A DNA stretch of 64,000 nucleotides from contig JAQURC010000004.1 in assembly GCA_028715785.1 (NCBI GenBank), forward strand, positions 92,662 through 156,661, read 5' to 3'. The position numbers were made by a program, and so were the translations under genes. This DNA is from Candidatus Omnitrophota bacterium. Its GTDB lineage: Bacteria; Omnitrophota; Gorgyraeia; Gygaellales; Profunditerraquicolaceae. Below, one piece after another: positions 34,353 to 64,000 of the stretch. Numbering within the stretch: the first letter of the stretch is position 1; the number at the start of each line of letters is the position of its first letter. The notes below the pieces were generated by a model. It searched no databases. It was not told the DNA's origin and saw only the letters and a program-made list of their open reading frames with translations.

Positions 34353-34354
34353 TA

Positions 34355-43045: not shown

Positions 43046-43074
43046 TTGACAAGCACCCCCCTGCGTGGTAATCT
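43046..43074 (+). promoter_or_regulatory. Strong sigma70-like promoter for the pilin gene array
   Basis: TTGACA, 17 nt, TAATCT, about 60 nt upstream of the first pilin ATG. Confidence 0.55.
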
Positions 43075-43135
43075 TTAATTGTAAAATAAAAAGGCGTTTC
43101 TCGACGGTAATTGAAACCGGTTAAGGAGTTATTTT

Positions 43136-43485: not shown

Positions 43486-43505
43486 CAAAAAGGAGGGAAT
43501 TAAAT

Positions 43506-43673: not shown

Positions 43674-43701
43674 TTTAATTTTTAGGGGGAGGTGAACAAA
43701 G

Positions 43702-44052: not shown

Positions 44053-44066
44053 GGAGGTGAACAAAG

Positions 44067-44414: not shown

Positions 44415-44424
44415 AATAACGGCA

Positions 44425-44754
44425 ATGCGCCGGGCGCAAAGCGTGGCTGAATATAGCATTTGTCTGGCATTGGTTTTAGCCGCGCTTTTGGGCATGCAGA
44501 TCTATGTAAAAAGGGGACTGCAGGGCAGATACAAAGAAGCGGTGGACCACGCGGCTAAACAGGCCGCAAGTGCGGCTCAATTGACTACAAGCCCTAAACA
44601 ATATGAGCCATACTATGTCCAGGACAAATTTACAGTTAATCAATCTAAGATAGTCAGTGAAGATATAGGGCATAAAGGCCAAACAACCCGGGATATCCTT
44701 GAGGATAAGGTAGGTATTGAGCAGGGTAGTAAAGCGATAAGGGATGTACAATAA
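44425..44754 (+). CDS. Flp-like pilin 6 with C-terminal extension
   Basis: MRRAQSVAEYSICLALVLAALLGMQIYVKRGLQGR… The internal ATG at 44425 is preferred to the ORF-track start 44305, which overlaps pilin 5. Confidence 0.6.
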   Translation: MRRAQSVAEYSICLALVLAALLGMQIYVKRGLQGRYKEAVDHAAKQAASAAQLTTSPKQYEPYYVQDKFTVNQSKIVSEDIGHKGQTTRDILEDKVGIEQGSKAIRDVQ

Positions 44755-45922
44755 AATGAAAATGCGCAAAACAGGCCAGAGCATAAATGAATATGTGTTG
44801 GTAATCGTCCTGGTTACCTTGGCCGGGATAGGTATGCAGAATTATATTAAGCGGGGCATACAGGGTATAGTGAAGACCTCTGCCGATACGCTGGCTGGTG
44901 AAAAGGGGGATACGGTTGTGTATTCGGGCAGCGACAAGAGTATTTTAACCCGCTATGATCAAGCCGGCAATTTACAGTGGAACCCGGTCGCGGTATCATA
45001 CGAGAGCAGGCTTAGCGGAGGTTTTTTCGTAGCAGAGAAGACCGGCAACCAAGTCCAGTATATTCATTATCCCGATACATCCGATCTTAATAATAAAATA
45101 ATCATCGGCGGCCAGGACCAGGCAAGCGGTGATTTTACCAGCTATGACTGGGAAGGTTACGTAGACGCGGTTTATGATAAAGACGGAAAATTAATAAAGA
45201 AATTTACTCCTCAAGAGGCAAGGGATAATTATTCTAAATATGACATAGTATTATTAAGTTCCGCGGCGGCCAAATCCATGGTTCAAAATGGAGTAGTTGA
45301 GCGAGGACTAATTGAATTTGGATATAAGGACCCTTTAAAACCACTAACGTTTAATACCCCCACCCCCAGAAAAATCACTGTGAAGACGTATTCAAAGTAT
45401 AGCGGCCCGAAAAGTTTAGCGTTAGCGGATTGGCATCCGGCCATGACAGCGTATAAAGAAAAAATGGAAGAAGATAAGATCGGGGGGTTTATTCAAACAG
45501 AAATAAAAGGCAGTATGGTTTATTACTACACCTTTACTACCAACCCTAAAGATAGAGTACTTATCGGCGGAGAGGATACCCGCACAGGTGATTTTACAGG
45601 ATTTGACCCGGATGGTTTTCCTGTATCGACCGTAGATGGCAAACTCAACGTGCTTAGGACATATAGCGGTTATCTAACTGACCCGGAAACAGAAGAAATT
45701 GTGGGCGTAACCGGCAGCGACGGCAAAATTTATGGGCAGCACCAAATAGTAACAATAAGCCCTGCTCTTCAAACTACCGGTCCGGCAACAGTTGCTATTC
45801 CGATGAGGACAAAGACCATAGACAATGATACGACTCAGGTTACAGGCGCTTGGGAGGCAACTTATAAATTAGGTACGGATATCTATAAACCGAAGGGCAA
45901 TACGCCCCCAATAAAAAAATAA
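44744..45922 (+). CDS. Flp-like N-terminus fused to about 350-aa C-terminal domain (pilin-like adhesin/minor pilin 7)
   Basis: MKMRKTGQSINEYVLVIVLVTLAGIGMQNYIKRGIQG… then a large Gly/Thr/Tyr-rich globular region. Start may be 44756. Confidence 0.65.
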   Translation: MYNKMKMRKTGQSINEYVLVIVLVTLAGIGMQNYIKRGIQGIVKTSADTLAGEKGDTVVYSGSDKSILTRYDQAGNLQWNPVAVSYESRLSGGFFVAEKTGNQVQYIHYPDTSDLNNKIIIGGQDQASGDFTSYDWEGYVDAVYDKDGKLIKKFTPQEARDNYSKYDIVLLSSAAAKSMVQNGVVERGLIEFGYKDPLKPLTFNTPTPRKITVKTYSKYSGPKSLALADWHPAMTAYKEKMEEDKIGGFIQTEIKGSMVYYYTFTTNPKDRVLIGGEDTRTGDFTGFDPDGFPVSTVDGKLNVLRTYSGYLTDPETEEIVGVTGSDGKIYGQHQIVTISPALQTTGPATVAIPMRTKTIDNDTTQVTGAWEATYKLGTDIYKPKGNTPPIKK

Positions 45923-45924
45923 TT

Positions 45925-46314
45925 ATGTTACTACAAATGAATAAAAAATATAGATTAGGCAGACCAAACGCGCAATCGACACTGGAATACGCCATCGTGG
46001 TTGCTTGCATAGTAGCGGCGCTTATAGGGATGCAGTTTTACGTAAGGCGGGGAATCCAGGGAAGGCTAAGAGCGGCAGGGGATGAGATCGGCGAGCAGTA
46101 TACTCCACTTAACGTGGAATCAAAAATTACTACAGAAACAACTTCAAATACGACAATAAGCCAGAGCCTGGTCCCCTTAAAAAAGGACGGTAACCCTATA
46201 TTTGACCAGTATGGTTTACCTGTGTATGGAATGAAAACAGAAGCGGGTATTGATGAAACTACCTCCAAAAGCGGAAAAGAAACATTAGGGGAGTTTGAAA
46301 ATGGTTTATTTTAA
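45925..46314 (+). CDS. Flp-like pilin 8 with C-terminal extension
   Basis: …RPNAQSTLEYAIVVACIVAALIGMQFYVRRGIQGR…. Confidence 0.65.
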   Translation: MLLQMNKKYRLGRPNAQSTLEYAIVVACIVAALIGMQFYVRRGIQGRLRAAGDEIGEQYTPLNVESKITTETTSNTTISQSLVPLKKDGNPIFDQYGLPVYGMKTEAGIDETTSKSGKETLGEFENGLF

Positions 46315-47332
46315 TAAAAAAGCGCAAAGTTTAACCGAGTTATCTGCTTTTGGCTCGGTACTTTTATTGGCGTTGTCTTTTCTTATAAGTTATGGGATGC
46401 GTTATAATTACCAGCAGGATATACAGATGCGCGCTTTTCGCACGGCCCTGGCTGAGGCCTATAACGTTACGCGGCCCGATGCCTCAGCTTCGGTTGTGCT
46501 GCTTAATGATAAGCATGTACCCGATCCCCGCGATATGTTTGGTGTAGGTAATATTGTTCCGGTGCAAGCCGAAGCCGAAGTAATCTGGGGCAACACTCTG
46601 CAGGATAAATATACCGACCTCACAGATAGATCACGTTTGCCCCGGAAGAAATATGTGGTTAACGGCAAAGAATACGAATATAGGACTGCAGGCTTTGGTT
46701 TCATTACCAATGCTGTTAAGATCGACGGTAGTGCTGCCAATCCATTTTACGTAATGCTTCCTAATAACAATGAACCACAGCTTGTGACTTGGGATAAGCT
46801 GCGTTGTTATCAACCCACCGGAGATTTACCTAAACAAGCAATGATTTTGCTGAATCCCGAAGCAGCTGATGCCGACAAACAAAAAGAAATAATCACTGAA
46901 GTTTATTTAAAGCGGGGAGAAAAATTGTATGTAAAGTATCAGGTTATCGGAGTAAGGACTGATCCTCCTACCGCTTCTGATGGAGCCTCGATTGACCGGT
47001 TGGATTTATTAAGCCCGGATTCAGGCGAGATTAATCCCAATTATACTCAGTTAAACAATGATGTTGATAATGATGGTATTCCGGATGTGACTCCCAATAA
47101 TCTCCAAGGGCTATTGTTTAATGATGAGCAGAATATCAGGCGCAGCGGCACGCTTACAATAGAAGAAACTCCCCAAAAAACTATAAGCACCAGCACATAT
47201 AGTTTTAGCAATAAAGCCGGGAAACCTACGACGATTACGCATAAAATTAGAGATAATTCCGGGGTGATTATGCCTGTCAGCTCTCCTTTTGATGGAAGGA
47301 CCAGGATATCCGAATGGACAACGCCAAAGTAA
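46295..47332 (+). CDS. TadE/TadF-like pseudopilin with large C-terminal domain
   Basis: 345 aa. KKAQSLTELSAFGSVLLLALSFLISYG is a TadE-like N-terminus. Confidence 0.6.
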   Translation: MKMVYFNKKAQSLTELSAFGSVLLLALSFLISYGMRYNYQQDIQMRAFRTALAEAYNVTRPDASASVVLLNDKHVPDPRDMFGVGNIVPVQAEAEVIWGNTLQDKYTDLTDRSRLPRKKYVVNGKEYEYRTAGFGFITNAVKIDGSAANPFYVMLPNNNEPQLVTWDKLRCYQPTGDLPKQAMILLNPEAADADKQKEIITEVYLKRGEKLYVKYQVIGVRTDPPTASDGASIDRLDLLSPDSGEINPNYTQLNNDVDNDGIPDVTPNNLQGLLFNDEQNIRRSGTLTIEETPQKTISTSTYSFSNKAGKPTTITHKIRDNSGVIMPVSSPFDGRTRISEWTTPK

Positions 47333-47571
47333 AGGCGCAAGTTGCGCTTGAATTTGTCACTGCCTTTATTTGCACCATTCTTTTATTGGTGCTGACTACG
47401 CAGCTTCTTGTCTGGTTTGGCAATAATATCGTTAACCGGCAGAAGGCATATGAAAGCACGCGGAGCATGGCACTTACCCTGGATACATCTGAACCCGTTG
47501 TCCCCAAAAAAGATTTTTATACGCCTTCTAAATTAAAGATATTCGGAAATACGGAAGAGTTACCAAAATAA
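47314..47571 (+). CDS. TadE-like pseudopilin (small)
   Basis: 85 aa. AQVALEFVTAFICTILLLVLTTQLLVWF. Confidence 0.55.
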   Translation: MDNAKVKAQVALEFVTAFICTILLLVLTTQLLVWFGNNIVNRQKAYESTRSMALTLDTSEPVVPKKDFYTPSKLKIFGNTEELPK

Positions 47572-47576
47572 TTAAA

Positions 47577-47786
47577 ATGAGAAAAAAAGGGATGAGCGTG
47601 GTAGAATATAGCTTGCTGGTTGCCATAGTAATCGCCGCGCTTCTGGCAATGCAGGTTTATGTTAAGCGGGCGGTAAGCGGACGCTGGAAGGAAGCAGGGG
47701 ATGTGTTTGGCTTTGGCAGGCAGACCTCCAAGACGATCCTAAGAACCCAGCCGCCCACAGGCGGCGGCGAATTACCAGGAATGTAA
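47577..47786 (+). CDS. Flp-family pilin 11
   Basis: 69 aa. MRKKGMSVVEYSLLVAIVIAALLAMQVYVKRAVSGR. Confidence 0.65.
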   Translation: MRKKGMSVVEYSLLVAIVIAALLAMQVYVKRAVSGRWKEAGDVFGFGRQTSKTILRTQPPTGGGELPGM

Positions 47787-47787
47787 A

Positions 47788-48633
47788 ATGAGAATATTAA
47801 TTATCTTGCTTATTTTCGGCTCAATCGCTGGTTTGGCCTACGAATTAATTCCTTTATTCTTAGAACGTTATTCTCAGCTCCAGAGTAAGCGTATGGAAAA
47901 GGCCTCGAAAGAGCTGCACCAGATGTTTATCTTTACCGAGAAACACCGCTTACTGCCGATGTTTACGATCACGCCTCTGGTGCTGGGCACGTTGGGATTC
48001 ATTATCCTGCGTAACCCGCTGGGCGCTTTAATCGGCGCGGGGCTTGGTTTGTTATTGCCCCGGATATGGATTAAAAATATGGGCCGAAAAAGACAGAATG
48101 ATTTCGGCAGGCAGCTGGTAGACGCGCTTATGCTCCTTTCCAGTTCTCTTAGGGCCGGGATGAGTTTGCCCCAGGCATTCGAGGTGCTTACCGAAGAGAT
48201 GCCCGCGCCGATCAGCGATGAGTTCGCCCTGGTGATCAAAGAAAATAAAATGGGCGTAACCTTAGAGGATTGCCTGGCGCATCTTAAACAAAGAATCCCT
48301 CTGGATGATTTGGAATTATTGACTACCGCTATAAGCATCTCCCGGGAAACCGGAGGGGATTTGACTGAAATTTTCGCAAACCTGGTGCATACTATCAGGG
48401 AAAAAAGAAAATTAGATGACCGTGTAAGGGTATTGACCGTGCAGGGCCGGCTGCAGGGGGCGATTATGGGCCTTTTGCCGATAGCGTTCGGAGTCTTCAT
48501 TTACTTCATTAATCCGAGCAATTTTGACGTAATGCTTAATGACCGGTTCGGCCAGATGCTGCTTGTCTGGGCGGTAATTTCCGAAGTAATCGGAGTAATC
48601 CTTATCCGGAAATTAAGCAAGGTGGATATATAA
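47788..48633 (+). CDS. tadB: Flp pilus assembly protein TadB (T2SS F-family membrane protein)
   Basis: 281 aa polytopic membrane protein with a T2SSF-domain pattern. Follows the pilin array. Confidence 0.8.
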   Translation: MRILIILLIFGSIAGLAYELIPLFLERYSQLQSKRMEKASKELHQMFIFTEKHRLLPMFTITPLVLGTLGFIILRNPLGALIGAGLGLLLPRIWIKNMGRKRQNDFGRQLVDALMLLSSSLRAGMSLPQAFEVLTEEMPAPISDEFALVIKENKMGVTLEDCLAHLKQRIPLDDLELLTTAISISRETGGDLTEIFANLVHTIREKRKLDDRVRVLTVQGRLQGAIMGLLPIAFGVFIYFINPSNFDVMLNDRFGQMLLVWAVISEVIGVILIRKLSKVDI

Positions 48634-48635
48634 AT

Positions 48636-49517
48636 ATGGAACTTGTGCTGATTATTTTATTGCTGTTTACCAGCATCGGATTTGTGGCCTACCATGTTTC
48701 TAACCGCAAGCTGGTCGAAGAAGTGCATCTGCCTTCCGAGATTACCGGTGAATCGGGATCCAAGCTTAAGGCGTTTAATCTTAAGAATATTTTAAGCGGG
48801 CCGGCCGGCTTTATCGAGCGCTTGTTCGGTAAATCAAGCTTCTCTTTGCCGGCCAGCGATTTGCATAAACGGCTGGCTTCTTCAAATAAAATAATGAGCC
48901 CTACCCAATTTATGGTATTAAAATTTTTCCTGGCGCTGGCTGTGCCGTTGGCTGCCCTTATTGCTTTTCAGGCAAAACCCGTGGTCCTGATCTTCTGCGC
49001 CGGCATCGGTTTTATTTTACCGGACATCTGGCTGAATAACCTTATCAAGAAAAGGCGCGCCTTGATTGTAAAAGACCTGCCTTTGGTAATTGATCTTTTG
49101 AATATCTGCGTGGGCGCGGGCCTTGATTTTATGGTGGCGGTTAACCGCGTGATCCAGGAGTTCAGGCCCTGCGCGCTTATTGAGGAAATGAAGATAATGA
49201 CCAATGAAATACAAATGGGCATCTCCCGGCGTGACGCGTTAAAGAATATGTCTGCCCGCATAAATAACCCCGAGATCAGCTCGTTTGTGAGGACGCTTTT
49301 ACAGGCAGACAGGATCGGCACGCCGATCAGCGAGGCATTGAAGATGCAATCAGAGGAGATCCGGTTGCGCTGGTTCCAAAAAGGCGAAGAGATGGCTTTG
49401 AAAGCCCCGATTAAGCTTTTATTCCCCTTGTTGATATTCATCCTTCCTGTAGTTTTAATCATTGTGGCCGGCCCAATTTTGATCCAGTTCACCCGCGGCG
49501 GCATGGTTAAATTCTAA
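48636..49517 (+). CDS. tadC: Flp pilus assembly protein TadC
   Basis: 293 aa. Paralogous T2SSF-domain membrane protein directly after tadB. Confidence 0.8.
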   Translation: MELVLIILLLFTSIGFVAYHVSNRKLVEEVHLPSEITGESGSKLKAFNLKNILSGPAGFIERLFGKSSFSLPASDLHKRLASSNKIMSPTQFMVLKFFLALAVPLAALIAFQAKPVVLIFCAGIGFILPDIWLNNLIKKRRALIVKDLPLVIDLLNICVGAGLDFMVAVNRVIQEFRPCALIEEMKIMTNEIQMGISRRDALKNMSARINNPEISSFVRTLLQADRIGTPISEALKMQSEEIRLRWFQKGEEMALKAPIKLLFPLLIFILPVVLIIVAGPILIQFTRGGMVKF

Positions 49518-51813: not shown

Positions 51814-51842
51814 TTGACAGCGTCTATGCGGGGTGTTATATT
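51814..51842 (+). promoter_or_regulatory. Sigma70-like promoter upstream of the giant ORF
   Basis: TTGACA, 17 nt, TATATT, about 170 nt upstream of ATG 52011. Confidence 0.45.
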
Positions 51843-52010: not shown

Positions 52011-55000
52011 ATGAATACAAAACAGCCGCAGACAGAAAACAGTATCGAGCAACCGAAAAGTGAATTCAAGTCAAGTTTTAAAGCTTGGATCCGCGCGGTT
52101 GCTTTTGTTGTTATCGCGGTATTCCTGCCGGAGCAGGCGGCCCAGGCAATGGGCTATGATCCCACCACAATCTGGAACCATTCTTATTTTGTGAACCAGG
52201 GTAAAAACGGATTTTTAACTTATCTTGTCGCGGATAATATCAAACGTTCCCTGGATTCCCTGTCATACAAACAATTAAATCAGGTTCAACTGGATAAAAA
52301 TTTAGTAATTGAGACAGCCCCGCTTAAAGAATCAGAAACTATTGCGAAGGTCTCTGCGCCAATCAAGGGAGACCAAAGCAATTTTTTTGGTAAAATCGGC
52401 AATGCCCTACAAAGCGGCAGTGTGTCAATTTTCCGCCTTTTAACAAGCGGCCTGAAGAAAGATTCCTCACCCGATCAATCCCTCCCCACCACAAGGCAAG
52501 GAACCGCCTCCAGCCAGAAACCGTCACTTTATTTGACCGGATCAGTGGTAAAACAAATCAACCTGTGGCTTAAGGATCCAAAGACACAGGTTGATAACAA
52601 CTGCGGTATCAACGCGCTGAATGCTTTATTTGTCCAATCAGGAATTAAAGTAACCCGTGAGGAATTGGCAACCCGGGCGATTATGGTTGATTTTCTTTCA
52701 GGCAATTTAAGGGAGTTTAAAGGCGAGCTTGCCTTATCCCTTTTTGCCCTGCAAAAAACCGCCGCATCCTTTGGCCTTAAAACCGCTTTAGTCAAAATTC
52801 CCGCTTCGGCATTGAATCAAGGGGACGGTTCTGTTTTTCTAACACCAAACTCAGGAAAAATAGAACCGTCCCCTTTATTTCAAGTGGTTCCCTTCATCAC
52901 CTATCTTTTATCCGAGCATTTCGTCTTAGTCACCCGCGTAACCGAAGACAAGGTTTATTACAAAGAAGACAAAGAAGAAGCCAATATGCCCAAGGAGATT
53001 TTTCTCAAGGGCTTTACCGGCAATTGCCTGGTGCTTGCGGATTCTGTGTCATTGCGAGGGAGCGAAGCGACCCCCGTGTCATTGCGAGGAGCCGCAGGCG
53101 ACGAAGCAATCTCGTTCCTCTCCGACCAAGAAGCATTGCAAATCAGCGGAAAAGAGAGTTTAACCGATAGGTATAATTCATTGAAGTCATATGTCAGCAA
53201 CACCGCCAAATCCACCATCTCCACCGCCAAATCCTATGTTTCCACAGCCCGCAGCACCTATACTACCGCAAGCAATGTTTACAACGCAGTCAAGTCTGTA
53301 ACCGGTATTTCCGCAAGCTCTATTGTGACAAGAAGCTCCATCCCCAGCAATCCTCTAAGCGCCATCAGCGTTCCTGTAACCACATATAACTATCTGGCTA
53401 GCCCCTCCACCAAAGGAAATTTAGGCAAAAGCTATGGCGCTGCAAATACCCTGCAAACCGATTTCGCTTTAACCGTACCCAAGCGTGCATATGATTTTAC
53501 CGGCTGGGTAGATACTGTCAGCGGCCTTAATTCAAACCTGGGAACCAAGCTTTATCAGAGCTCCAGTCTAGTCAGATCCATCTCCGATGCTTATTCTGGG
53601 GTCAAAGGAAGAACCGAGTCCTCTTTAAAGCAAACCTACGGAATAGGGACTTATAATAATTTTATTAAACCATCAGAGGAATTTATTGCGGATAATGCAA
53701 TTATTACGGTTGCTACCTTAGGCGCTGGTTCAGCTGCCGGCCTTGCGGGAAGTACAGCCGCTCGGCTGGGCTCTGTAAGCCGCATTGCCGAACCTGTCAT
53801 TTCTCGCCTGCCTCAAATTAGCCGCTACACCGGCTCAATTTCTCGTTATCTACCAAACGGAGTTAATAGGATGCTTGGAAGCACCGAAGGAAGCCTCAAT
53901 ATTGCTTCCCATATTCCTAATTTGGAGCGGCTATCCAATACCGCCAAATGGGCGGGGACAAAAATATCTGGCGGCGCTAAATGGCTGACTAAACTTACAT
54001 CTCCGCGGCTACCACAGGTAAGAAATGCTATTAGAACAGAAATAAATATTATAAATAATGCACAGGGCTTAGCTCGTACATATAGACAAGTGACCTTTAT
54101 TCCAAGAATGGGCTGGAAGGCCACAGGCTATATCGGTAATTTTGTTAATATTCGCCCGCTAACTACTTACGGTTCGCTCGTTGGCATAGGGATGTATGAG
54201 TCATATGGCAAAGATATAAAAAGGGATCCATATCGCGGTGAAGCCGACCTTTTATGGTTAGGAAGCACTTGGCATCATTTCGCCCTTAATGATAAAAAAT
54301 CCGAAACATTTAAAACAAATTTAGAACAAAAAGGATTAACTTCAGATATTTATCTATTTGAAGAGGGTCGCCGCAAAGAGGAGGAAAATCCAGGGCTCTT
54401 AGGTCAGCTTTATGCAGCACCTTATCATTTTGGAAGCGGGTTGATTGGTTTCACTAAATTTGTTCCTTCTGCCGCGGATAAGGTATATTCAAGAGGTCGA
54501 AACGAAGGCATTAAAGCCGGCGCGCAAGAAGCATTTAGCACCGGAGTTGGCGTGGGTTCATTCTTGGCAGATTATTATGTTGCCACTCCGTATAATATAG
54601 TTTCCTCAACAATTAATTACGCATTCGGGTCGCAGATCAAAGGCATTAAGATCGGCGCCTTCCAGGAACTGTTATCTCAAAATCAAACTTTAAAACCTTG
54701 GGTATCTGACGGAGCTGTTCTTGCTCCGGAAGCAAAAGCCAAAGATTATTATCCTAATTTTGGTTTCTTTATCGGCTCAGCTCCTTTGATGCGCGGCCCG
54801 ATACAGAAAAGTATGCATGATAGAAGCGCCATAAAGCCGGAAAAAACTTCTACAGGCGCTCTTAGCCGCACCCACAAAATTATTATGGAGAAGAGCGACG
54901 CTACGTTTAATTTTCTTCTTGTTCCGGTTAACGCGGTTGCCGGCCCGATGTTTGGAGCGTTGCAATATTCCAAGGCGCGAGGAACCAATCTGCTAAACGG

Positions 55001-58000
55001 CGCGTTAATCCGCTCCGGTTTTAACCCCAAAGAATTCGGTATCAGGCCGGAAGCAAAAGCATCGTTTGGCGATACTGTTTTTGTAACGCCTTGGAAAACG
55101 CAAGTAGCAGGAGGAATTATAGGTTTGCCTCTTGAGATTCCCGGGGTTAAAAAACGCGCGCAGTTGTATTTCCTGCCCGGCGGTATTCTTTCTCCGCTAG
55201 CTCCCGATCAAATGGCTCCACTCAGAGCAATAGCCAAAGAATACGGTGCTGATTATAACCGCTTAAGGAAGGCAGGAGCTACGCCTGATAGAATCCTTAA
55301 GATGCAGGATGGCAAGATAATTCCTCGAGGTCCGGCAACAGGAATAGAGGTAACTCCGGAATTAAAAACAATAGCTTCCTATGAAAAGGCAGTAACCGGC
55401 AGGTTAACTGATAGGGATGCGAAAGGGGGCAACTGGAAAGCAATTAGGGAATTATCCGATGCCGCCCTTATACAAAAAGCCACAGAGAATTCAGGAGTAA
55501 AATCCCAATTTGCTAAATTAGAAATATCTATGCGCGGTTTGTCGGGCAATTCCCAACTCATAAAAGATTATCTGGGGAGAGTAGATAGCAGTATAGATGT
55601 TAGAAAGATAGCCGAACTCGATAAAGCTTACAGTAAAATTCAAGCCCGCAATGAGATTTTCCAGCCGATAGATTACGCTTTAGCCAAATCCGGTAAAGAA
55701 ATAATAAATAGACAAAGAGATTTTGAATTAGCAGGATTAAAACAGAGTATCGAAGAGACCAAAACAGCCCAGATTGCTGAAGTTAAAGCCGGTGCCGAAG
55801 TAAAAAAGGCGCAGTGGGGATATACGATAAATCCGACTTCAGGCAATCTGAATAAAATAGCAAAATCGGAAGTAAATCTGGCACGAATATCCCTTCCTTT
55901 GGAGATAGCCCGAAAGATAAACGAAGGGAAAAAAGAATTGAATGGGGTAACTCAAAAAATAGATGAAGTGGAAAAACAGATTCGTTTAAATGAACGTAAT
56001 TTCCTTCGTAAGCCAGATCCCGAAAATTCACAAAAGAGGAGAGAATTATCCGCAAAGAAAGCGGAATTAATGGCTGATCAAACAAGGTTGAGCAGCCTGG
56101 TTGAAGTTGAAGGAATAAAACACCAATTGGTCTCCCTGGTAATTGCCGGGAAGTTTGGAACTAAAGACCATAATCAGGCTGCTGAAGAGTTTAATATGAA
56201 AGCGGATTTAAGCAACGGTGTTGAGGGGATTTTAAGTAGCCAACTTAAGCACGATATGCTGAGAAGATTTGAACGTATTAAAACAAAAGGAGATAGTAGC
56301 AGTTTCAACCGGGCTTGGAATAAAATAAATCCAAATTCAGAATACAATCGGGCAATAAAAACTTTAAATGCTATTAAAGACATAGATATCAGTAAAATAG
56401 ATGGAGCTATTAAAGATACGAAAAATGAAATACTAAAATCAGCGGCATTAAATGATAATTCAAGGCAGGAACTGGCCAGAAAATTTTATGAAGATGGTAT
56501 TACTGCTGAAACGATTAAAGCAAAAGGTTTTTGGGAAAATTGGCACGAACTCGGACAGGGTTTAAGTGGGATTAACCAAGAGAGAATGAATGACGGGATG
56601 CAGAAATTGTTTAAACTGGAGGTGCTTAAGCTCGACCAGAAAGAATTGGAAGGAAAAACTAACCTCGGGTTTAGGATTGATTTCGATGAAGGAAAAAAAC
56701 TTAAAGCGGATACAGATGAGCGGAAGATCTTTGATACCCTGAGAAAATTGGACGAGAAAGAAAACCAGGGCATAAAGTATGAATTTCAAAAATCAGTTGG
56801 TGATTTAATAAAAGGCTGGAAGTGGAAAGAAACTTTCAAAGACCAAAATAAAGTTACCGATAGCAAGAATGAGGTAGCTAGCATATTGGCTAATCATTTA
56901 TCAATATTAAAGAATCCCGATTCAATGAATAATCCGGAATTTAGGGGCCAAGATAATTCACTTAAAGATTCCAGAGGAAAAACTGAACTGGGCATATTCT
57001 TGGCTTTAACCACTTTTAAACACTCCGGCCGCGAAGATCTTGGTTTATTTGCTACTCCTAATGAGTTAGAACGGGTATATAAGAGGGTATTGGAGGATTA
57101 TCTGGGAGGGGAAAAAATCAGTATTGGAGAAGGAATAGATGGGGTCAAAGTTACGATTGGCGGAGCAGATTATACCTTTATAAAAATTACCGATAAAGAT
57201 ATTCAATCTTCTTACTTAGCTGATAATTTAGGCAAATTAAATGATATTTTTAAAGACAAGATCATCCTCACTGATATCTCTACTTTACAGAATCTTAATA
57301 TGCAAAAGATCGTTCCTTCGCAAGGGCCAGTGGAAAAGCAATTGGCTAAGCGGCTGGCTGAGATTATTTATGACCGGGCAGTTATAATCGATGAAATCCA
57401 TCAGGTTTCTCAATCCCCTTATCATATAGTTGGTTTTGACGGCAAGGCTCTTGCAGAGTTTTTAAAACCTGCCGAGTATGAAAAATATGTTGATGTTGCT
57501 GAAAAAATAGACAGAAAATTCCAAGAATTGGCTAACCTTGAAGAAGTTACAAATAATAAGGGTGAGCCAGTCACAACAGTCAAAGGCTATGGTAATTTAG
57601 GGGATAGATTAATTAAAATGGAATATGTTGATGAATATAAAGGTCTTACGACAGCAGGAGAAAATGAATTCAAGAGATTATTAGGCGATAAATTTGTAAC
57701 GCAAGCAGAGAATAAAGATTTCAGTATCGAACGGCTTTTGGTAAATTCTTTTGTCAGGAACCTATCTATGAAGGAAGAGCAGGAGGGTGGTTTTGGCCTG
57801 AAGAAAAACGAGAGTCAGGAAGACGAGGCCCATCCGGTGCATTTTGGAAAGATTAATGAGAAAATGCAGTGGTCAACTCCGGAAGAGGCAATTTCGCGCT
57901 GGGTTATCGGTTTTCGGATGAAAGGTGTCAAGACGAAAGATAAAGATAATAATATTATTGATATTCCAGTAGGGGAAATTATCAGTAAAATAAAAATAAG

Positions 58001-61000
58001 CGAAGAATCGGTAAAAGTCTCTCCGATTTCGGTTCTTGCCAATTTCAAATCCTCTAAAACATTCTTCTCGGCCACTCCTTTTTACGCGGAAACTATGTCT
58101 GACCTTTTAGGGGTAAGGTATCAAGGTAACGCGGCGAAGTTTATGGCTAAAGTTAAATTTGATTTAGAAGGAAAGATAGGTAAGGAAAAAGTTGGAATAG
58201 GTGATTATGGAGAAATGATTAAAGACGGCAAGTTTAAATTAGGTGCTGATAGGCCGAATATTATCCTGCCGGCTTTACTGGCGCATATTCCTGATTTTCT
58301 GAATAAAGTTTTTGAGGCTGCCGGCGGCAGAGAGGTTTTCTATATTGAAGCCGATGGAACTGTTTCTAAAATAGGACAAGATGGCCAGAGAATCGGAAAA
58401 TTGGAATCGAAATTGGATTCCTCGGGTAAGATTATTAAAATTAAACCCTTGGAACGGCTTGAAAAGAGAGTAAATGGAGAGGATAAGGATGAAGGTGATA
58501 GGAATATAGTTGTAGTATTCAGTCCTTCCAAATTAACCAGTTTCAGTTTTGAGGTCAAGAAAGCCGAACTCGGACAAAAAGAAGCTCAGTATACACTTAT
58601 TATTGATAAGGATACTTCAGCTACTGATTACTGGCAGGCTTTGAGAAGGAATAGGCAGAATCTGGAAGATTTCAATGTTATTTTCAATGGCCGGGCTGGT
58701 GAGCCGTTAGAGTCCATCTGGGAAAATTTAGTAAAAACCGAAAATTTAAAAAAGAATGACGCTTTGGTTAAAGCTATAACCGAAACCCATCAGGATGCCA
58801 TGGCTGGCCGGTTTGTTAGGTTCGCGGAGGTTTTTCCGGAAAAGGCTGACCTGGCTTACCAGTTGCTTAAGGCTTTTCAGAGTAAACACGCAAAAGACGC
58901 CGATATTACTCCGGATAAGATACGCTCTAATGCTTATCGGCAGATTATTAGCGGCTTCAACAGTGACATTACATTCTTTGATGATGTAATCAAAGATTTT
59001 TCCCCCCTGTTTCTTTCCAAGAGAATAACTGAAAGCAATGGAAAAACTGAGCATACTTTAAAATTTAAATTAACTTCCGCGGAAAAGAGATTTTTCGAAG
59101 ACTATCTTAAACAAGACAAGATCTTCAGAGACAGGAATGGCTTGGATTCAAGTAGAAGCACGGGGGTTGATAAAGCCAAGGTAAAATCCGAGTTAGAAGC
59201 TATAGCCAGGTTTAAAGGCATACCTAATCTTGAGGCCGCTCGGTTTAGGGATTATTTGGCCCAAAGATATTCAACCAAAGAATTAATAAGGAAAAAAGTT
59301 TCTTCCCCGGAATCCAAAGAGGCTATTGTAGTGGCACAACAGAAAATTCAAGATGCGCTGGAAACTAAAAATGGAAAAACTCCCAAAGAATTAGCCGCCG
59401 ATATAAGACAAGATTTAATCGAACGTGGTTACACTGAATCAGCGGTTGCCGGAGTCTTAAGCCAGATGTATCCTTCCTTGAAAGAGAGCAATTGGCTAGC
59501 AAGGCGAGGGATAAATGCCAACTATATTTGGCAAGGCGTATTAGGATTTGGGCAGGCATTCTTGTTTATCAATAATCAGGAAAATAAAGAGAAAGATTGG
59601 TTTACAAAACTTATAGAAAAATTAAACTTTTCCTTGGGTTATGGCAAGGCAATTGGCACTATTCAGTCTTTTAGCGGTGAGTTTGAACCCGAATTTAAGG
59701 AGTTTTTATCAAAATACTATGAAACTGATGGCGCAAAGGGAAATATGCGGACAGCGTTAAGGTCATCTTTAGATAAGATGATTGCCGCATCAGTAAGGGG
59801 CGTGTGGGAGTCGAGAAAAAATTTAGAATTCTACAAATATATGAAGGATATAGCGGAAAAAAACATCCCAAAAGACGAAATAAGCAGGCTCGATAAATTA
59901 TTGAATCACCAAATAGCCAGGACAAATGAATTGAATGTTTTGAAAGCAAGATTGGGGAGGCCCAATGATCTAGATGAGTTGCAAGTGGCTTTATGGGCGC
60001 AAAAATTTGTAAGCCCTTCAGAAGAAAAATCCAGGATAATGGGTAAAATAATGAAAGCGCTGGGGATGGAAGAAAAGTTAAAGGATATAGTTAGCTTGGT
60101 TAAGGACAATATTCTTAAGGAAGCAAACGGAAAAATAAATGACGCTGGTAAAAAAATCCCCGAGTTGATAATTGTTTTCGGTGACGCCAATAAAAAAGCT
60201 ATTGAGGATACTGTAAAAGCGCAGAATAAATATTATGAAGATGAGGAAATAAATAAAGTGCAAATTCCAGTATATCTTGATGAATCGGTGAAAAACAACC
60301 TAATAAGTTCTTTAGGGATATTCTACAATCAAGATGATCCCTCCTTAGGAGCATCGAGCAGATATTACTCCACGGAGTTCCTGATGGAGTATTTGGTTAA
60401 ACCTTTACAAGAAAAAATTTCTCTCGATAAAAAAACTCAAGTATTTGTTGTGCCGGTAGGTAGAATACCTTTATCTGCCAGGGAACACGGAATTGTTACC
60501 AATATCTTAGGGGAAGGTTCGGCGCAGGCCAAAGGCGCTTTCATCAGCACCCATCCTTATACTACAGGCTGGATGGGCGGTTTTATATCAACTATCGGGA
60601 AAATATCCTGGGATTTATTTGGGACAGGATTTAAAACTTCATTGCAGAGAGTAATGAACCATGAATTAGGGCACGTTCACGGATTAGGCCACGATGCGAA
60701 AGCAGCATATTCTGTGATGTCTTCCTCTGAGAAAGAAGATGGCTCATTCTGGTCTTGGAAATGGCACTTCTGGAGAAAAGATAATACTTATCGGAAAGAG
60801 CATCTCGATGCAGTCAAAAATGATATAAAAGAAAAGGGAACAGATGTCTCTAGGGGCGTGGCTACTCCTGCCAATGAGCCAGGCACAGGTACTGCGGCTG
60901 AAGATGAAGATAAACGCGACGGCGGCATGGTTAGGGGCGGGCAGGCAAATGTATTTATAAATGGTGAAAACGTAAATAAACAAATTTTTGATAGAGAGGC

Positions 61001-64000
61001 TGTTGATTCTTATCAGCTGGCTATAGAAAGATTAGGAGAAACGTCATTAGGTATTAACGCATTTAATAAATATGGAAATGGGACAGCTTCGGTCAATCAG
61101 AATTTTGCCACGCCATTGTATGATCATTTAGCTAAGCTGGTAAGCGAGAATAAAATAGCCGAGGCTAAACAGGCCATAAATAATTTGGTCGGGTTTATTT
61201 ACAGGCAATGGGGCGGGGGGATTATCGACACCGACCATAAGTATTTACTGGATTATGGAGTGGATGGGAATGGCGAAATAATTTGGCTTGACCCGGGCAA
61301 AGCTTCTTCCAGAAAGACAGATTTTGTGATTGACTCGTATCGGGAGAGCGGAGACATTAAAGGTTCTTTACTTGGATTAAGCCAGGAATTATATAATTAT
61401 TATATAGGATTGACGGCTAATTTTGCTGATGAATTCCAGAAACGTTGGCCTGAAGGATCTCCGGCTGATACGGATTACATATTTGATGGCGGCAAAGGGA
61501 CGGCGGATGGCGGGATGGTGGAAACTGTGGCCAAATTGATTGCCGAATACAGAATAGCATTACCGCTTGACGAAGCCATAGCGAAAGTAAGAGAATTGGG
61601 TTATTCTGAAGAATTAATAACTAAGGCAATCGGTTACAATATTGGATTAGGAAGCGGGTCTTCTAACAATCCTTTGGATCGCGGCGGTAATAAGCAAGAC
61701 AAGACAGGGCAGTGGCCGGCATCTCCGGTGCTTCCGTTGGCTCCAGCAAGTGTGTCAGGCATTAATGTTGTTAGCCATAGCGGGGTTGCAGGCAGCTCTA
61801 ATCAGGCCTTAGTTGATAGTAACAGGCCATTATTACCTAATAATGATGGCGGTGCTAAGTTTATTCCTATTATAAAACTTAAACTTAATGGTATATTGAC
61901 TAGTTTTACTAGTGGTTTGGCTCCGCCCGCGGCCCTCACCAAAACTTTTATCTCAAATGTAGCAAGTAGTGTAGCAAATGCAGTAAGAAGCGCAGTTGAA
62001 TTAGCTGAGAAACTCTCAGGTGCCCAGAGTGCAAACTCCGGAAACGGAGAAAAAGGGCAGGATGCGGAAGGTGCGTCCGGCAATAATATAGGTAAGAGAA
62101 GCATAGCTGTGAAAGCAAGTTCAATAAGAACCGAAGGTGCGGCAGAAATTGCCAAAATCCGAGGTTCTCTTCGTGCGTTTGACTTCCTCAAGTTCAAAAA
62201 TTCGTTAATTCCCGCATTAAATCAATTTATTAATAAATTATCAGGGGTCAGCTCCTGGCTGTCCTCAAAGACAGTTCTGGCCTACAGGAGCACCCTTGAT
62301 TTAAATAATGCTGAAGCCATTCCTTCTTTACGCGATGGGGGGAATGTAGAGATTGGTAAAATTGTTAGAGAGATTGGTATTTTAGTTGAACACGAGGTGG
62401 ATGAGCTTAAGCGTAATCGAAAGAATGGTGAAACTATCGCAGGAAGATATCCCGGAGAGAAGAATAGGGGCACAAGAGATGCTATAATTCGTAAAGCAGA
62501 GGATAATCTAAAGTTGATGCGTAAATGGGGTTTGAATAGGTCTTTGACTGCGGATGAAGTGGGTTTAGACCTTGATGATGATTTTAGCGCTAAGATGACA
62601 ATATATGGAGCCATCTCCGGGGTAAACGGCTCCAGAGAGAAAATTGGCGACAAGCAGCTGATTATGAAGCTAGATAAAATTATCGAAACTATAAAGCAGC
62701 TATCAGATGAAGATAAGGTAGAACTAATATTGGAAGTATTAAAGGGTATGCCATTGTTAGAAAGCGCAAAAATTATAAAACCCCTAGAGCAGCACTTAAA
62801 AGAAGGTTATCTCATGAGACTGTTGCCTGAGGACAGAGAAAAGTTAGAGAGGATTTTAGGAGAGCATCGGGATTATAATGGTAATGAGCAAATATTAAAA
62901 ATGCTTGAAGAAATCAAAAAAGGACAGGAAGAATTTGAAGTTAGGCTAGATAAAACTGAGGAAAAGATAGAAGATGTAAAACAAGAAGCAGGAGCAGCAA
63001 AACAAGAAGCAGGAGCAGCAAAACAAGAAGCAGGAGCAGCAAAACAAGAAGCAGGAGCAGCAAAACAAGAAGCAATGTTATTAGGTACAGAGATAACTAA
63101 AACTAAGGCAATGGCACTCGATGCACGTAGACATGCGGTAGGGACAGGAGATGATTGTTTAGTTGGTGCGGTCAAAGATCCAAATGTTAGAAAAGAAGCA
63201 GATAGAGAACTTCGTATAGAAGCCGGTGTTGATGAATCTGTTCCCTATGTGGTTAAGGATTTATATGCTGGTATGAAGATAATCAGGCAAGCTTATGATA
63301 AGTTTATTGAAAAATATAGGGCTGAAGGGAACTGGAAAAAGGTAGAAACTTTAAAACAGGAAAAATTGACCGTAGTGAAAGTAAAAGAAGGAAATAAAGC
63401 GATTGAACTGCTTTCAAAATATTCTGGAAGAATAAGCATAATAGTTCAAAAGTCCCAAGATCTACTGCATGTTTATCAGGTAACAGGTTATAATTCTGAG
63501 ACTGGAATGATTTCATACTCTGAGGATAATGGAGAGGGTCATACTGTTGGATATGGAGAGATTGCTTTGGATGAAATCACTAAGATCTACGGCGAATATG
63601 TGTTTGTTTTAGAGGAAGGAGTAGTTAATGGGGCAGGATTAAAAGCAAATGTATTAACTGAGAAAGAGCAGAAAGCAATTAAGAACGTTGGTGGAGCTGG
63701 TGTAGATGCTAGCAGTGTAAACAATGGCGTAACTGACAACACTAGTAATACGAATAATGGTAATGGTAGTATGGATAGCAGTGTAGGCTCAGTCGCAGAA
63801 AATAATGCAGGAAACACCAATGCAGGGTCTAATAATGCAGATGCAACAGGAGCAAATGCTCTGGCAAACACCGGTATTCAGGCAGCCGGTAATGACATGG
63901 GCCATGGCGGGTCAGCTGCTGGGGTTGCCGCTTCGTCCGCGGCTCCTGGCGACGCAACCGGGACAGTAAAAATAGGGGATGTGGAAGGTCTTTCTTCTGT
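52011..64000 (+). CDS. Giant multi-domain protein, 5' portion (at least 3996 codons, no stop before the window end): N-terminal TM anchor, C39-like cysteine-peptidase motif, long alpha/coiled-coil-rich body, metzincin HExxHxxGxxHD motif, Asn/Gly/Ala-rich C-terminal part
   Basis: Manual translation in the frame of ATG 52011 (preceded by an in-frame TAA) met no stop codon through 64000. The ORF track shows only short minus-strand ORFs here because no stop codon closes the + ORF. TM is AWIRAVAFVVIAVFLP. Cysteine-peptidase motif DNNCGINALNALFVQSGIKVTREELA. Metzincin motif VMNHELGHVHGLGHD at 60660-60695. Confidence 0.75.
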   Translation, partial: MNTKQPQTENSIEQPKSEFKSSFKAWIRAVAFVVIAVFLPEQAAQAMGYDPTTIWNHSYFVNQGKNGFLTYLVADNIKRSLDSLSYKQLNQVQLDKNLVIETAPLKESETIAKVSAPIKGDQSNFFGKIGNALQSGSVSIFRLLTSGLKKDSSPDQSLPTTRQGTASSQKPSLYLTGSVVKQINLWLKDPKTQVDNNCGINALNALFVQSGIKVTREELATRAIMVDFLSGNLREFKGELALSLFALQKTAASFGLKTALVKIPASALNQGDGSVFLTPNSGKIEPSPLFQVVPFITYLLSEHFVLVTRVTEDKVYYKEDKEEANMPKEIFLKGFTGNCLVLADSVSLRGSEATPVSLRGAAGDEAISFLSDQEALQISGKESLTDRYNSLKSYVSNTAKSTISTAKSYVSTARSTYTTASNVYNAVKSVTGISASSIVTRSSIPSNPLSAISVPVTTYNYLASPSTKGNLGKSYGAANTLQTDFALTVPKRAYDFTGWVDTVSGLNSNLGTKLYQSSSLVRSISDAYSGVKGRTESSLKQTYGIGTYNNFIKPSEEFIADNAIITVATLGAGSAAGLAGSTAARLGSVSRIAEPVISRLPQISRYTGSISRYLPNGVNRMLGSTEGSLNIASHIPNLERLSNTAKWAGTKISGGAKWLTKLTSPRLPQVRNAIRTEINIINNAQGLARTYRQVTFIPRMGWKATGYIGNFVNIRPLTTYGSLVGIGMYESYGKDIKRDPYRGEADLLWLGSTWHHFALNDKKSETFKTNLEQKGLTSDIYLFEEGRRKEEENPGLLGQLYAAPYHFGSGLIGFTKFVPSAADKVYSRGRNEGIKAGAQEAFSTGVGVGSFLADYYVATPYNIVSSTINYAFGSQIKGIKIGAFQELLSQNQTLKPWVSDGAVLAPEAKAKDYYPNFGFFIGSAPLMRGPIQKSMHDRSAIKPEKTSTGALSRTHKIIMEKSDATFNFLLVPVNAVAGPMFGALQYSKARGTNLLNGALIRSGFNPKEFGIRPEAKASFGDTVFVTPWKTQVAGGIIGLPLEIPGVKKRAQLYFLPGGILSPLAPDQMAPLRAIAKEYGADYNRLRKAGATPDRILKMQDGKIIPRGPATGIEVTPELKTIASYEKAVTGRLTDRDAKGGNWKAIRELSDAALIQKATENSGVKSQFAKLEISMRGLSGNSQLIKDYLGRVDSSIDVRKIAELDKAYSKIQARNEIFQPIDYALAKSGKEIINRQRDFELAGLKQSIEETKTAQIAEVKAGAEVKKAQWGYTINPTSGNLNKIAKSEVNLARISLPLEIARKINEGKKELNGVTQKIDEVEKQIRLNERNFLRKPDPENSQKRRELSAKKAELMADQTRLSSLVEVEGIKHQLVSLVIAGKFGTKDHNQAAEEFNMKADLSNGVEGILSSQLKHDMLRRFERIKTKGDSSSFNRAWNKINPNSEYNRAIKTLNAIKDIDISKIDGAIKDTKNEILKSAALNDNSRQELARKFYEDGITAETIKAKGFWENWHELGQGLSGINQERMNDGMQKLFKLEVLKLDQKELEGKTNLGFRIDFDEGKKLKADTDERKIFDTLRKLDEKENQGIKYEFQKSVGDLIKGWKWKETFKDQNKVTDSKNEVASILANHLSILKNPDSMNNPEFRGQDNSLKDSRGKTELGIFLALTTFKHSGREDLGLFATPNELERVYKRVLEDYLGGEKISIGEGIDGVKVTIGGADYTFIKITDKDIQSSYLADNLGKLNDIFKDKIILTDISTLQNLNMQKIVPSQGPVEKQLAKRLAEIIYDRAVIIDEIHQVSQSPYHIVGFDGKALAEFLKPAEYEKYVDVAEKIDRKFQELANLEEVTNNKGEPVTTVKGYGNLGDRLIKMEYVDEYKGLTTAGENEFKRLLGDKFVTQAENKDFSIERLLVNSFVRNLSMKEEQEGGFGLKKNESQEDEAHPVHFGKINEKMQWSTPEEAISRWVIGFRMKGVKTKDKDNNIIDIPVGEIISKIKISEESVKVSPISVLANFKSSKTFFSATPFYAETMSDLLGVRYQGNAAKFMAKVKFDLEGKIGKEKVGIGDYGEMIKDGKFKLGADRPNIILPALLAHIPDFLNKVFEAAGGREVFYIEADGTVSKIGQDGQRIGKLESKLDSSGKIIKIKPLERLEKRVNGEDKDEGDRNIVVVFSPSKLTSFSFEVKKAELGQKEAQYTLIIDKDTSATDYWQALRRNRQNLEDFNVIFNGRAGEPLESIWENLVKTENLKKNDALVKAITETHQDAMAGRFVRFAEVFPEKADLAYQLLKAFQSKHAKDADITPDKIRSNAYRQIISGFNSDITFFDDVIKDFSPLFLSKRITESNGKTEHTLKFKLTSAEKRFFEDYLKQDKIFRDRNGLDSSRSTGVDKAKVKSELEAIARFKGIPNLEAARFRDYLAQRYSTKELIRKKVSSPESKEAIVVAQQKIQDALETKNGKTPKELAADIRQDLIERGYTESAVAGVLSQMYPSLKESNWLARRGINANYIWQGVLGFGQAFLFINNQENKEKDWFTKLIEKLNFSLGYGKAIGTIQSFSGEFEPEFKEFLSKYYETDGAKGNMRTALRSSLDKMIAASVRGVWESRKNLEFYKYMKDIAEKNIPKDEISRLDKLLNHQIARTNELNVLKARLGRPNDLDELQVALWAQKFVSPSEEKSRIMGKIMKALGMEEKLKDIVSLVKDNILKEANGKINDAGKKIPELIIVFGDANKKAIEDTVKAQNKYYEDEEINKVQIPVYLDESVKNNLISSLGIFYNQDDPSLGASSRYYSTEFLMEYLVKPLQEKISLDKKTQVFVVPVGRIPLSAREHGIVTNILGEGSAQAKGAFISTHPYTTGWMGGFISTIGKISWDLFGTGFKTSLQRVMNHELGHVHGLGHDAKAAYSVMSSSEKEDGSFWSWKWHFWRKDNTYRKEHLDAVKNDIKEKGTDVSRGVATPANEPGTGTAAEDEDKRDGGMVRGGQANVFINGENVNKQIFDREAVDSYQLAIERLGETSLGINAFNKYGNGTASVNQNFATPLYDHLAKLVSENKIAEAKQAINNLVGFIYRQWGGGIIDTDHKYLLDYGVDGNGEIIWLDPGKASSRKTDFVIDSYRESGDIKGSLLGLSQELYNYYIGLTANFADEFQKRWPEGSPADTDYIFDGGKGTADGGMVETVAKLIAEYRIALPLDEAIAKVRELGYSEELITKAIGYNIGLGSGSSNNPLDRGGNKQDKTGQWPASPVLPLAPASVSGINVVSHSGVAGSSNQALVDSNRPLLPNNDGGAKFIPIIKLKLNGILTSFTSGLAPPAALTKTFISNVASSVANAVRSAVELAEKLSGAQSANSGNGEKGQDAEGASGNNIGKRSIAVKASSIRTEGAAEIAKIRGSLRAFDFLKFKNSLIPALNQFINKLSGVSSWLSSKTVLAYRSTLDLNNAEAIPSLRDGGNVEIGKIVREIGILVEHEVDELKRNRKNGETIAGRYPGEKNRGTRDAIIRKAEDNLKLMRKWGLNRSLTADEVGLDLDDDFSAKMTIYGAISGVNGSREKIGDKQLIMKLDKIIETIKQLSDEDKVELILEVLKGMPLLESAKIIKPLEQHLKEGYLMRLLPEDREKLERILGEHRDYNGNEQILKMLEEIKKGQEEFEVRLDKTEEKIEDVKQEAGAAKQEAGAAKQEAGAAKQEAGAAKQEAMLLGTEITKTKAMALDARRHAVGTGDDCLVGAVKDPNVRKEADRELRIEAGVDESVPYVVKDLYAGMKIIRQAYDKFIEKYRAEGNWKKVETLKQEKLTVVKVKEGNKAIELLSKYSGRISIIVQKSQDLLHVYQVTGYNSETGMISYSEDNGEGHTVGYGEIALDEITKIYGEYVFVLEEGVVNGAGLKANVLTEKEQKAIKNVGGAGVDASSVNNGVTDNTSNTNNGNGSMDSSVGSVAENNAGNTNAGSNNADATGANALANTGIQAAGNDMGHGGSAAGVAASSAAPGDATGTVKIGDVEGLSS
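52821..52873 (+). repeat. Second copy of the GGGGACGGTTCT(G/A)TTTTTCT…AGAAAAATAGAACCGTCCCC hairpin element, located in-frame inside the giant ORF
   Basis: GGGGACGGTTCTGTTTTTCT-aacaccaaactc-AGGAAAAATAGAACCGTCCCC encodes …GDGSVFLTPNSGKIEPSP…. Confidence 0.7.
53045..53113 (+). repeat. Palindromic repeat family member C (two tandem GTGTCATTGCGAGG arms + GAAGCAATCTCG core), in-frame inside the giant ORF
   Basis: About 85% identical to 51617-51690. Encodes …SVSLRGSEATPVSLRGAAGDEAISF…. Confidence 0.65.
62977..63075 (+). repeat. 21-bp in-frame tandem repeat (about 4.5 copies) encoding (KQEAGAA)n
   Basis: aaacaagaagcaggagcagca repeated head to tail. Confidence 0.8.

Follow-up and report, generated by a model that had tools for sequence, protein, structure and literature searches.

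A giant gene with a C39-like head and a metzincin-like module downstream of a Tad/T2SS-like locus in a Candidatus Omnitrophota bacterium

The stretch of DNA analyzed here, denoted as the window, comprises 64,000 nucleotides (nt) of contig JAQURC010000004.1 (assembly GCA_028715785.1, Candidatus Omnitrophota bacterium). Its last 12 kb are occupied by the 5' part of a giant gene, located downstream of genes that resemble tight adherence (Tad) and type II secretion systems (T2SS). The encoded protein starts with a signal-peptide-like segment and a C39-like peptidase domain, followed by an ATPase module reminiscent of superfamily 2 (SF2) helicases and a metzincin-like zinc peptidase module (Table 1). 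Retranslation of 52011-63998 (plus strand) yields 3996 codons and zero stops, in agreement with the original prediction, made from the letters of the sequence, of a giant frame that stays open up to the window end. An in-frame TAA at 52005 lies immediately 5' of the ATG at 52011. With a stop probability of 0.061 per codon, derived from the base composition of the window, the log10 probability of encountering no stop over 3996 codons is -109 (~1e-109), and the longest open reading frame (ORF) in the other five frames across 52011-64000 measures 131 amino acids (aa). An exhaustive HMMER search with aa 2760-3959 as query retrieved P0012, a protein of 5202 aa that is identical to the window ORF across aa 1-3996. 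P0012 corresponds to NCBI MDD5465686.1 from a Candidatus Omnitrophica metagenome-assembled genome (MAG), its coding sequence (CDS) being flagged "partial" on a contig of 160,279 bp. Since P0012 reaches 5202 aa, the gene extends at least 3.6 kb beyond the window and spans at least 15.6 kb. For the window end, no match was detected in genome or metagenome contig collections, and an exact protein look-up yielded no contig carrying a neighbouring protein or P0012. A phmmer search of the whole protein against the PDB returned nothing except a low-complexity match.

Table 1. Positions of the features described for the giant gene and its upstream region (aa numbering refers to the giant protein)
Feature	Position in window (nt)	Strand	Basis
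Tad/T2SS-like locus upstream of the giant gene	30890..49517	+	Pfam; Flp-like KKGQxTxEYA leaders
Candidate sigma-70-like promoter, TTGACA-17-TATATT with upstream TG	51814..51842	+	Consensus scan only, 11/12 matches; ~170 nt 5' of the ATG
First 3996 codons of the giant ORF	52011..64000	+	No stops; identity to P0012, which continues to at least 5202 aa
Signal-peptide-like/signal-anchor segment, aa 21-46	52071..52148	+	Hydropathy, conservation
C39-like papain-fold cysteine peptidase domain, aa 165-345	52503..53045	+	Pfam, alignment, PDB profile
In-frame palindromic element resembling repetitive extragenic palindromes (REP) or miniature inverted-repeat transposable elements (MITE), about 1.5-2 copies, translated VSLRGSEATPVSLRGAAGDEAIS	53046..53115	+	Just after the C39 domain
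SF2-helicase-like (SecA-motor-like?) ATPase module, aa 1625-2240	56883..58730	+	Conserved motifs
Metzincin-like zinc peptidase module, aa 2762-2940	60294..60830	+	Zinc motif, Met-turn, homologues
Conserved module aa 2960-3170, with kinase-like GGQxxV, DxK, DPGK/DAGK	60888..61520	+	Common to P0013, P0020
Perfect 21-nt tandem repeat, 4.6 copies, encoding (KQEAGAA)n	62978..63074	+	Tandem Repeats Finder score 194, 100% matches
Conserved module aa 3701-3889, invariant Cys3716 (DDCLVGA) and His3821 (HVYQVTGY)	63111..63677	+	P0015, P0017
Low-complexity N/G/A/S-rich linker, continuing past the window	63678..64000	+	Composition

The conserved head of the protein comprises aa 1-454 and is common to most relatives. 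Its N-terminal segment shows a positively charged n-region and the core AVAFVVIAVFL, followed by PEQAAQA-M, an AxA-type site. The Kyte-Doolittle window score of 1.81 for aa 21-47 bears out the N-terminal helix that had been proposed at the outset, and the pattern FKxWIRxVAF...LPEQAAQA is conserved across all aligned homologues. The papain/C39-like motif recognized by the original prediction is DNNCGINAL (aa 195-203), and a C39-like domain is indeed supported. Pfam PF03412 matches aa 165-345 with E=2.4e-4 and 21.4 bits, 0.6 bits under the curated cutoff of 22. The same family is found (E <=1e-3) in 11 of 13 homologous long ORFs, with a best value of 5.6e-12, and precomputed PF03412 matches exist on P0001-P0003 and P0005-P0007. 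A profile of the domain retrieves LahT150 (6mpz, 1.6e-4), ComA (5.7e-4) and 3erv (1.2e-3) from the PDB. A putative catalytic triad consists of Cys198 (nt 52602-52604), His303 (52917-52919) and Asp320 (52968-52970); in an eight-sequence alignment, the first two are invariant and Asp320 is conserved. Both His303 and Asp320 align with catalytic residues of solved C39 domains, the latter with the Asp of LahT and ComA. Because the catalytic Cys, one of six Cys in 5202 residues, is kept, the head could be catalytically active, and since the domain directly follows the signal peptide, it is probably extracytoplasmic. Unlike in ABC-exporter C39 proteins, no ABC transporter domains were detected by Pfam in P0012. 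Homologues of the head retrieved by a word-based search carry protein names referring to C39 domains, and seven out of ten bear Omnitrophota or Omnitrophica names. The same MAG also encodes P0009 (PHP73_05600, 1848 aa), which shows the signal segment and aa 347-454 as in the giant protein and is devoid of C39, making it a smaller paralogue that shares the export leader.

The genes upstream confirm the Tad neighbourhood that had been noticed initially, with Pfam matches on the individual neighbours. The locus starts with a Rotamase_2 peptidyl-prolyl isomerase (PPIase), RcpC/CpaB, a secretin fused to TonB_C and a TadZ-TadA fusion ATPase; it proceeds with a TadG-like protein, a GH3+PIG-L protein, a TPR protein and DUF192, and ends with eight Flp-type pilin-like genes, TadB and TadC. 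A scan for the head in one genome per species found 95 loci, of which 80 were fetched and examined. The head is thus encoded at 95 or more genome loci, and nearly all of the 80 examined are labelled Omnitrophota. In 76 of these 80, the ORF runs off the DNA available, and where the full 10 kb downstream are present, related ORFs typically exceed 3,500 codons. Sixty-four loci include at least 2 kb of upstream sequence, and in 43 of them the ORF is preceded by TadB/TadC homologues on its own strand.

Giant proteins of this layout have been described in Omnitrophota. Those of full length are reported to harbor C39 domains near N-terminal signal peptides, many transmembrane (TM) helices and divergent SecA_DEAD domains, and to be preceded by a system of >10 genes including gspD/E/F, rcpC, a Rotamase_2 PPIase and small class III signal peptide genes (West-Roberts 2023, bioRxiv 10.1101/2023.11.21.568195). 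A cluster of 24 proteins with a PF03412 architecture and Tad cassettes adjoining giants were described in a second study, where 916 long proteins of Omnitrophota were surveyed and 39% of them showed a topology of signal peptide (SP) plus TM segments (Nielsen and Lui 2026, bioRxiv 10.64898/2026.06.07.730766).

These relatives also bear on the question of whether the frame is an artefact, i.e. a product of misassembled repeats or a decaying pseudogene in which the peptidase motifs are chance matches. The contig ends within the gene, which also harbors both a perfect tandem array and a repeat element that has been inserted, and P0012 is perhaps derived from the same assembly and therefore provides no independent exclusion of misassembly. 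Yet, apart from the vanishing probability of a stop-free frame of this length, a protein from another MAG, P0013, is colinear with the giant protein at 75-80% identity over ~3100 aa, long frames of the same kind recur at the related loci, and the motifs are conserved in homologues far beyond chance. An artefact is hence barely credible.

The middle of the protein had been characterized as K/E-rich helical sequence. Its composition agrees with this description, K and E together accounting for 20-22% of residues in aa 1250-2750, but a conserved SF2-helicase-like ATPase module is embedded within. Its motifs are RGKTE (1656-1660), IIDEIHQ (1792-1798), FFSATP (2018-2023) and QALRRNRQ (2209-2216). 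The module is common to P0011, P0032, P0013, P0021 and the L001 homologue, the last of which displays a canonical APTGAGKS. A profile search with the module against the PDB remained empty. An SF2-like fold is supported for aa 1625-2240; the tests for SecA membership left similarity to SF2 at the fold level only.

Downstream of the ATPase module, the zinc motif HELGHVHGLGHD, which like the other motifs quoted by the original prediction is located where it had been placed, occupies aa 2884-2895 (nt 60660-60695) and represents the sole HExxH in 5202 aa. It belongs to the extended type, HExxHxxGxxH (aa 2884-2894). As His accounts for ~1% of residues, few such sites are expected: from composition, ~0.03 for HExxH and 2.7e-5 for HExxHxxGxxH, the latter being found in 0 of 20000 shuffles. 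A Met-turn, SVMSS, follows at 60711-60725, placing Met2903 nine residues past the third His. The module of ~180 aa is common to P0013, P0021 and the short predicted proteins P0016, P0018 and P0029 (182-315 aa). Among the six module sequences, HExxHxxGxxH is kept in five (it is degenerate in P0018) and the Met in all six. In a PDB profile search, 29 of the 30 top matches were metzincins (adamalysins, matrix metalloproteinases (MMPs) and archaemetzincins), with E values of 0.03-2 only and a coverage restricted to the zinc helix and the Met-turn; at the level of sequence, Met2903 aligns with the corresponding Met in stromelysin-3 and in a snake-venom metalloproteinase. No curated family could be assigned, since Pfam M10 scored 14.4 bits against a cutoff of 24 and the NCBIfam archaemetzincin model 12.4 against 145, and the module homologues likewise remained below threshold. 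Of the metzincin site claimed originally, the signature and the conserved Met-turn, the latter named in advance as a decisive check, are therefore present, whereas no family threshold is reached and the fold is not confirmed. The Asp after the third His, which had been taken as a sign of the reprolysin/ADAM type, did not hold up: this residue is D, G or E among the module homologues and, as it varies, gives no evidence of such an affinity, and the His-to-Met spacing of nine is MMP-like and shorter than the adamalysin spacing in the PDB alignment. Judged by its motifs, aa 2762-2940 is very probably a metzincin-type zinc endopeptidase outside the curated families.

Two further conserved modules, for which no family could be detected, are found closer to the window end. 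Neither Pfam nor PDB profile searches produced matches for aa 2960-3170, and its kinase-like reading, based on motifs and devoid of profile support, was dropped. The second module (aa 3701-3889) shows 50-55% identity to P0015 and P0017; its interpretation as a second papain/C39-like peptidase was rejected, with an hhalign probability against C39 of 0.2% and an empty PDB profile search. As had been predicted, the visible C-terminal part is rich in N, G, A and S, which make up 42% of aa 3751-3996. Beyond the window, hydrophobic stretches at aa 4457-4479, 4510-4528 and 4641-4676 resemble TM helices (a cluster of three to four), which in conjunction with the N-terminal signal points to an SP+TM architecture. 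Past this cluster, a JAMM/MPN+-like motif, HYHPGFGSDISAVD (HxHx7Sx2D; aa 4913-4926, ~nt 66747-66788), was considered and discarded, having no Pfam or PDB support.

Comparison of the homologues shows that the body is a fast-diverging mosaic of exchangeable modules. The colinearity with P0013 covers aa 1-675, 1276-2950 and 2960-3688, aa 676-1275 being swapped for unrelated sequence. Apart from the head, P0014 (6788 aa) has only aa 3159-3682 and 4001-4638 in common with the giant protein, and P0021 shares the block aa 1900-2952. The GC content at third codon positions (GC3) amounts to 0.48 in codons 1-500, resembling 38 other genes of the window (0.36-0.60), and to 0.30-0.38 in the remaining 3500 codons; this break falls where the conserved head gives way to the mosaic body. 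The core of the palindromic element inserted behind the C39 domain, GTCATTGCGAGG...CGAAGCAATC, occurs six times in the window against 0.14 expected, and the other copies of the element are intergenic, at 42909-42965 (core 42911) and 51614-51722 (cores 51616-51719). In the closest relatives (L001, L002/P0001), the peptide VSLRGSEATPVSLRGAAGDEAIS precedes the C39 domain, whereas it follows this domain here. The repeat at 62978-63074 is likely a site of length variation and assembly trouble; heptad repeats resembling (KQEAGAA)n are also present in the unrelated Omnitrophota proteins P0026 and P0027.

A conserved head joined to a variable body would also suit a self-processing secreted polyprotein or polymorphic effector array, in which the C39 domain cuts the body into enzymes released onto prey. 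This is in line with the retained catalytic triad, with the exchangeable modules separated by low-complexity linkers, and with the genome-typical GC3 of the head as opposed to that of the body, and the idea of cleavage has been raised for giant proteins (West-Roberts 2023). However, double-glycine-type sites were not identified at the module borders. The sole candidate site, VSLRG-S or VSLRG-A, was set aside as a C39 cleavage site, the peptide being a translated REP-like DNA insert. Such a polyprotein is thus considered quite unlikely. A more specific version, a diversifying array composed of an export/processing head (signal peptide and active C39 peptidase) and recombining AT3-rich cassettes that the head cuts apart after Tad-associated export, would count a metzincin family not classified so far and an SF2 motor outside the cytoplasm among its cassettes and has to be regarded as a long shot; if true, the gene would encode a polyprotein secreted by a bacterium and adapted to specific hosts or prey.

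Several peculiarities were observed in the upstream region. Two fusions in the Tad locus are unusual, namely the secretin with a C-terminal TonB_C (32700-34352) and the single ORF combining a TadZ-like ParA/MinD ATPase with a TadA (T2SSE) ATPase (34355-36532). The set of Flp-type pilin-like genes (43140-47332) is unusually large; it consists of three tiny genes (~43140-43345, 43343-43480 and 43511-43675) and five larger ORFs (116, 115, 392, 129 and 345 aa), the latter each beginning with a class III leader of the KKGQxTxEYA type. The scanned ORFs revealed no prepilin peptidase (TadV). Downstream of tadC, a hairpin resembling a terminator is located at 49545-49571. The interval between tadC and the giant gene harbors a tandem duplication of ~1.3 kb (49573-51464, ~80% identity) with an ORF6N (KilA-N-like DNA-binding) gene in each copy. 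Single ORF6N genes are located just upstream of the giant ORF in L001, L022 and L069, and these genes could be local regulators. The 20-nt sequence TTCCCGATTGGCTCGGAAAC occurs four times within 50848-51762, once inverted, against 0.01 expected. It is confined to the surroundings of the second ORF6N gene and the region upstream of the giant gene, and its 17-nt core has no exact match at any of the 80 loci fetched; the sequence perhaps represents an operator or a piece of a repeat. Divergent from the Tad locus, an operon on the minus strand (24297-27904) encodes a FIST sensor, a histidine kinase and a response-regulator-GGDEF protein, which fits the link to cyclic di-GMP noted by West-Roberts (PilZ genes near giant genes).

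The window probably contains the 5' part of an Omnitrophota giant gene of the published class, whose product carries a signal peptide and a C39 head, is encoded downstream of a Tad/T2SS-like locus and acts at the envelope or cell surface. The N-terminal signal would direct Sec export, and the later TM helices would tether the chain to the inner membrane. The exported bulk could then act with the Tad apparatus at the envelope or surface, contributing to adhesion to cells of hosts or prey and to the breakdown of their surface. The C39 head might process the giant chain or a partner protein, and the metzincin-like module may supply zinc-dependent endopeptidase activity.

A number of observations weigh against this interpretation. 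The partial CDS of at least 5202 aa lies under the published size thresholds of 7,000, 10,000 or 30,000 aa. Domains of the Archaeovorin/Dockerin type (glycosyltransferase, glycoside hydrolase, NUDIX, methyltransferase, dockerin) were not found by Pfam and NCBIfam in aa 1-3996 or by Pfam in aa 3901-5202; the sequence 3' of aa 5202 may hold such domains. In aa 1625-2240, no Pfam SecA_DEAD or helicase match was obtained, and an hhalign comparison of the ATPase module with E. coli SecA (sequence entered by hand) was negative. For aa 2762-2940, an AlphaFold2 model computed from six sequences displays a strand/helix order compatible with a metzincin, and Foldseek searches with this model found no meaningful match, leaving the metzincin fold unconfirmed; at a predicted local distance difference test (pLDDT) value of 45, the fold search is uninformative. 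The topology and the cleavage of a signal peptide were deduced by hand from hydropathy, charge and the AxA rule. Finally, the deduced topology would place an ATPase on the exported side of the membrane, where such an enzyme is difficult to account for.

Because of this ATP-dependent motor, a different arrangement is considered, in which the first helix serves as a reverse signal anchor, while the body of ~4400 aa remains cytoplasmic, tethered at both ends to the inner membrane at the base of the Tad apparatus. The protein would then serve as a scaffold, with the ATPase, the C39-like domain and other enzyme modules acting on substrates within the cytoplasm, for instance pilins or exported cargo. 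The conserved GKT, DEIH, SAT and RRNR motifs belong to an SF2 ATPase that needs ATP, and the best C39 matches in the PDB, LahT and ComA, are domains of the type found in peptidase-containing ABC transporters (PCATs). C39 domains of PCATs are cytoplasmic. Moreover, predictions assign a TM-only topology with a cytoplasmic bulk to 46% of the long proteins of Omnitrophota (Nielsen and Lui 2026). The charge distribution, on the other hand, favours an N-in orientation, with K/R before the helix, acidic residues after it and no positive residue for 25 aa. The conserved AxA right after the helix fits a cleaved Sec signal, and signal peptides adjoin the C39 domains of giant proteins (West-Roberts 2023). 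A metzincin-like protease and N/G/S-rich linkers, too, would be typical of exported proteins. The cytoplasmic arrangement is consequently judged unlikely, albeit worth serious consideration.

As regards significance, Omnitrophota giant proteins are thought to mediate attachment to, and predation on, other microbes. Almost no giant-protein sequence can be annotated, and the copy described here is comparatively short with clearly bounded modules. The C39 head, the SF2-like motor and the self-contained metzincin-like module of ~180 aa thus provide tractable pieces for biochemistry, which bears on the published hypotheses of self-processing, self-export and surface degradation. The class itself is already known and no new category is opened; the feature that is set apart is the unclassified metzincin-like module. 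In a term search, neither 'metzincin' nor 'zinc' appeared in the main text of the two studies (West-Roberts 2023; Nielsen and Lui 2026), and the sole metallopeptidase mentioned across both is an M36 domain in a Chlorobi protein.

The individual modules show likeness to known systems to different degrees. With PCATs (ComA, LahT, PCAT1), the C39-like domain shares the papain-like fold signature and Cys, His and Asp at aligned catalytic positions, and its profile matches the PCAT domains 6mpz and 8hf6 at ~1e-4. It differs from them in being located after a signal peptide and not fused to an ABC transporter, and the oxyanion Gln is not conserved across the family. In comparison with SecA and SF2 proteins, motif I of the ATPase module is degenerate, reading DSRGKT instead of TGxGKT, and no scaffold or wing domain as in SecA was recognized. 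The metzincin catalytic fold consists of a five-stranded sheet, a backing helix, an active-site helix and a C-terminal helix. As in the minimal metzincins, i.e. matrixins (M10), archaemetzincins (M54) and adamalysin/reprolysin (M12B), the module at aa 2762-2940 displays HExxHxxGxxH and a Met-turn nine residues past the third His, and its zinc helix starts ~120 residues into the ~180 aa. In contrast to these families, the similarity is confined to ~30 residues around the zinc site, and there is no Cys, which precludes a cysteine switch and disulfides.

The closest correspondence is that with the published C39-headed giants. Common to both are the phylum, the head composed of signal peptide and C39 domain, the TM helices and, perhaps, a divergent SF2/SecA-like motor module. 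The genes upstream correspond as well, encompassing the PPIase, RcpC, secretin, ATPase, GspF-like TadB/C and small class III signal peptide genes, and Pfam coverage is likewise poor and divergence rapid. The combination had originally been singled out as noteworthy, but giants with a C39 head encoded downstream of T2SS/Tad-like loci are known from the literature as a hallmark of Omnitrophota. As this layout has already been described, the gene represents one more member of the Omnitrophota giant-gene class.

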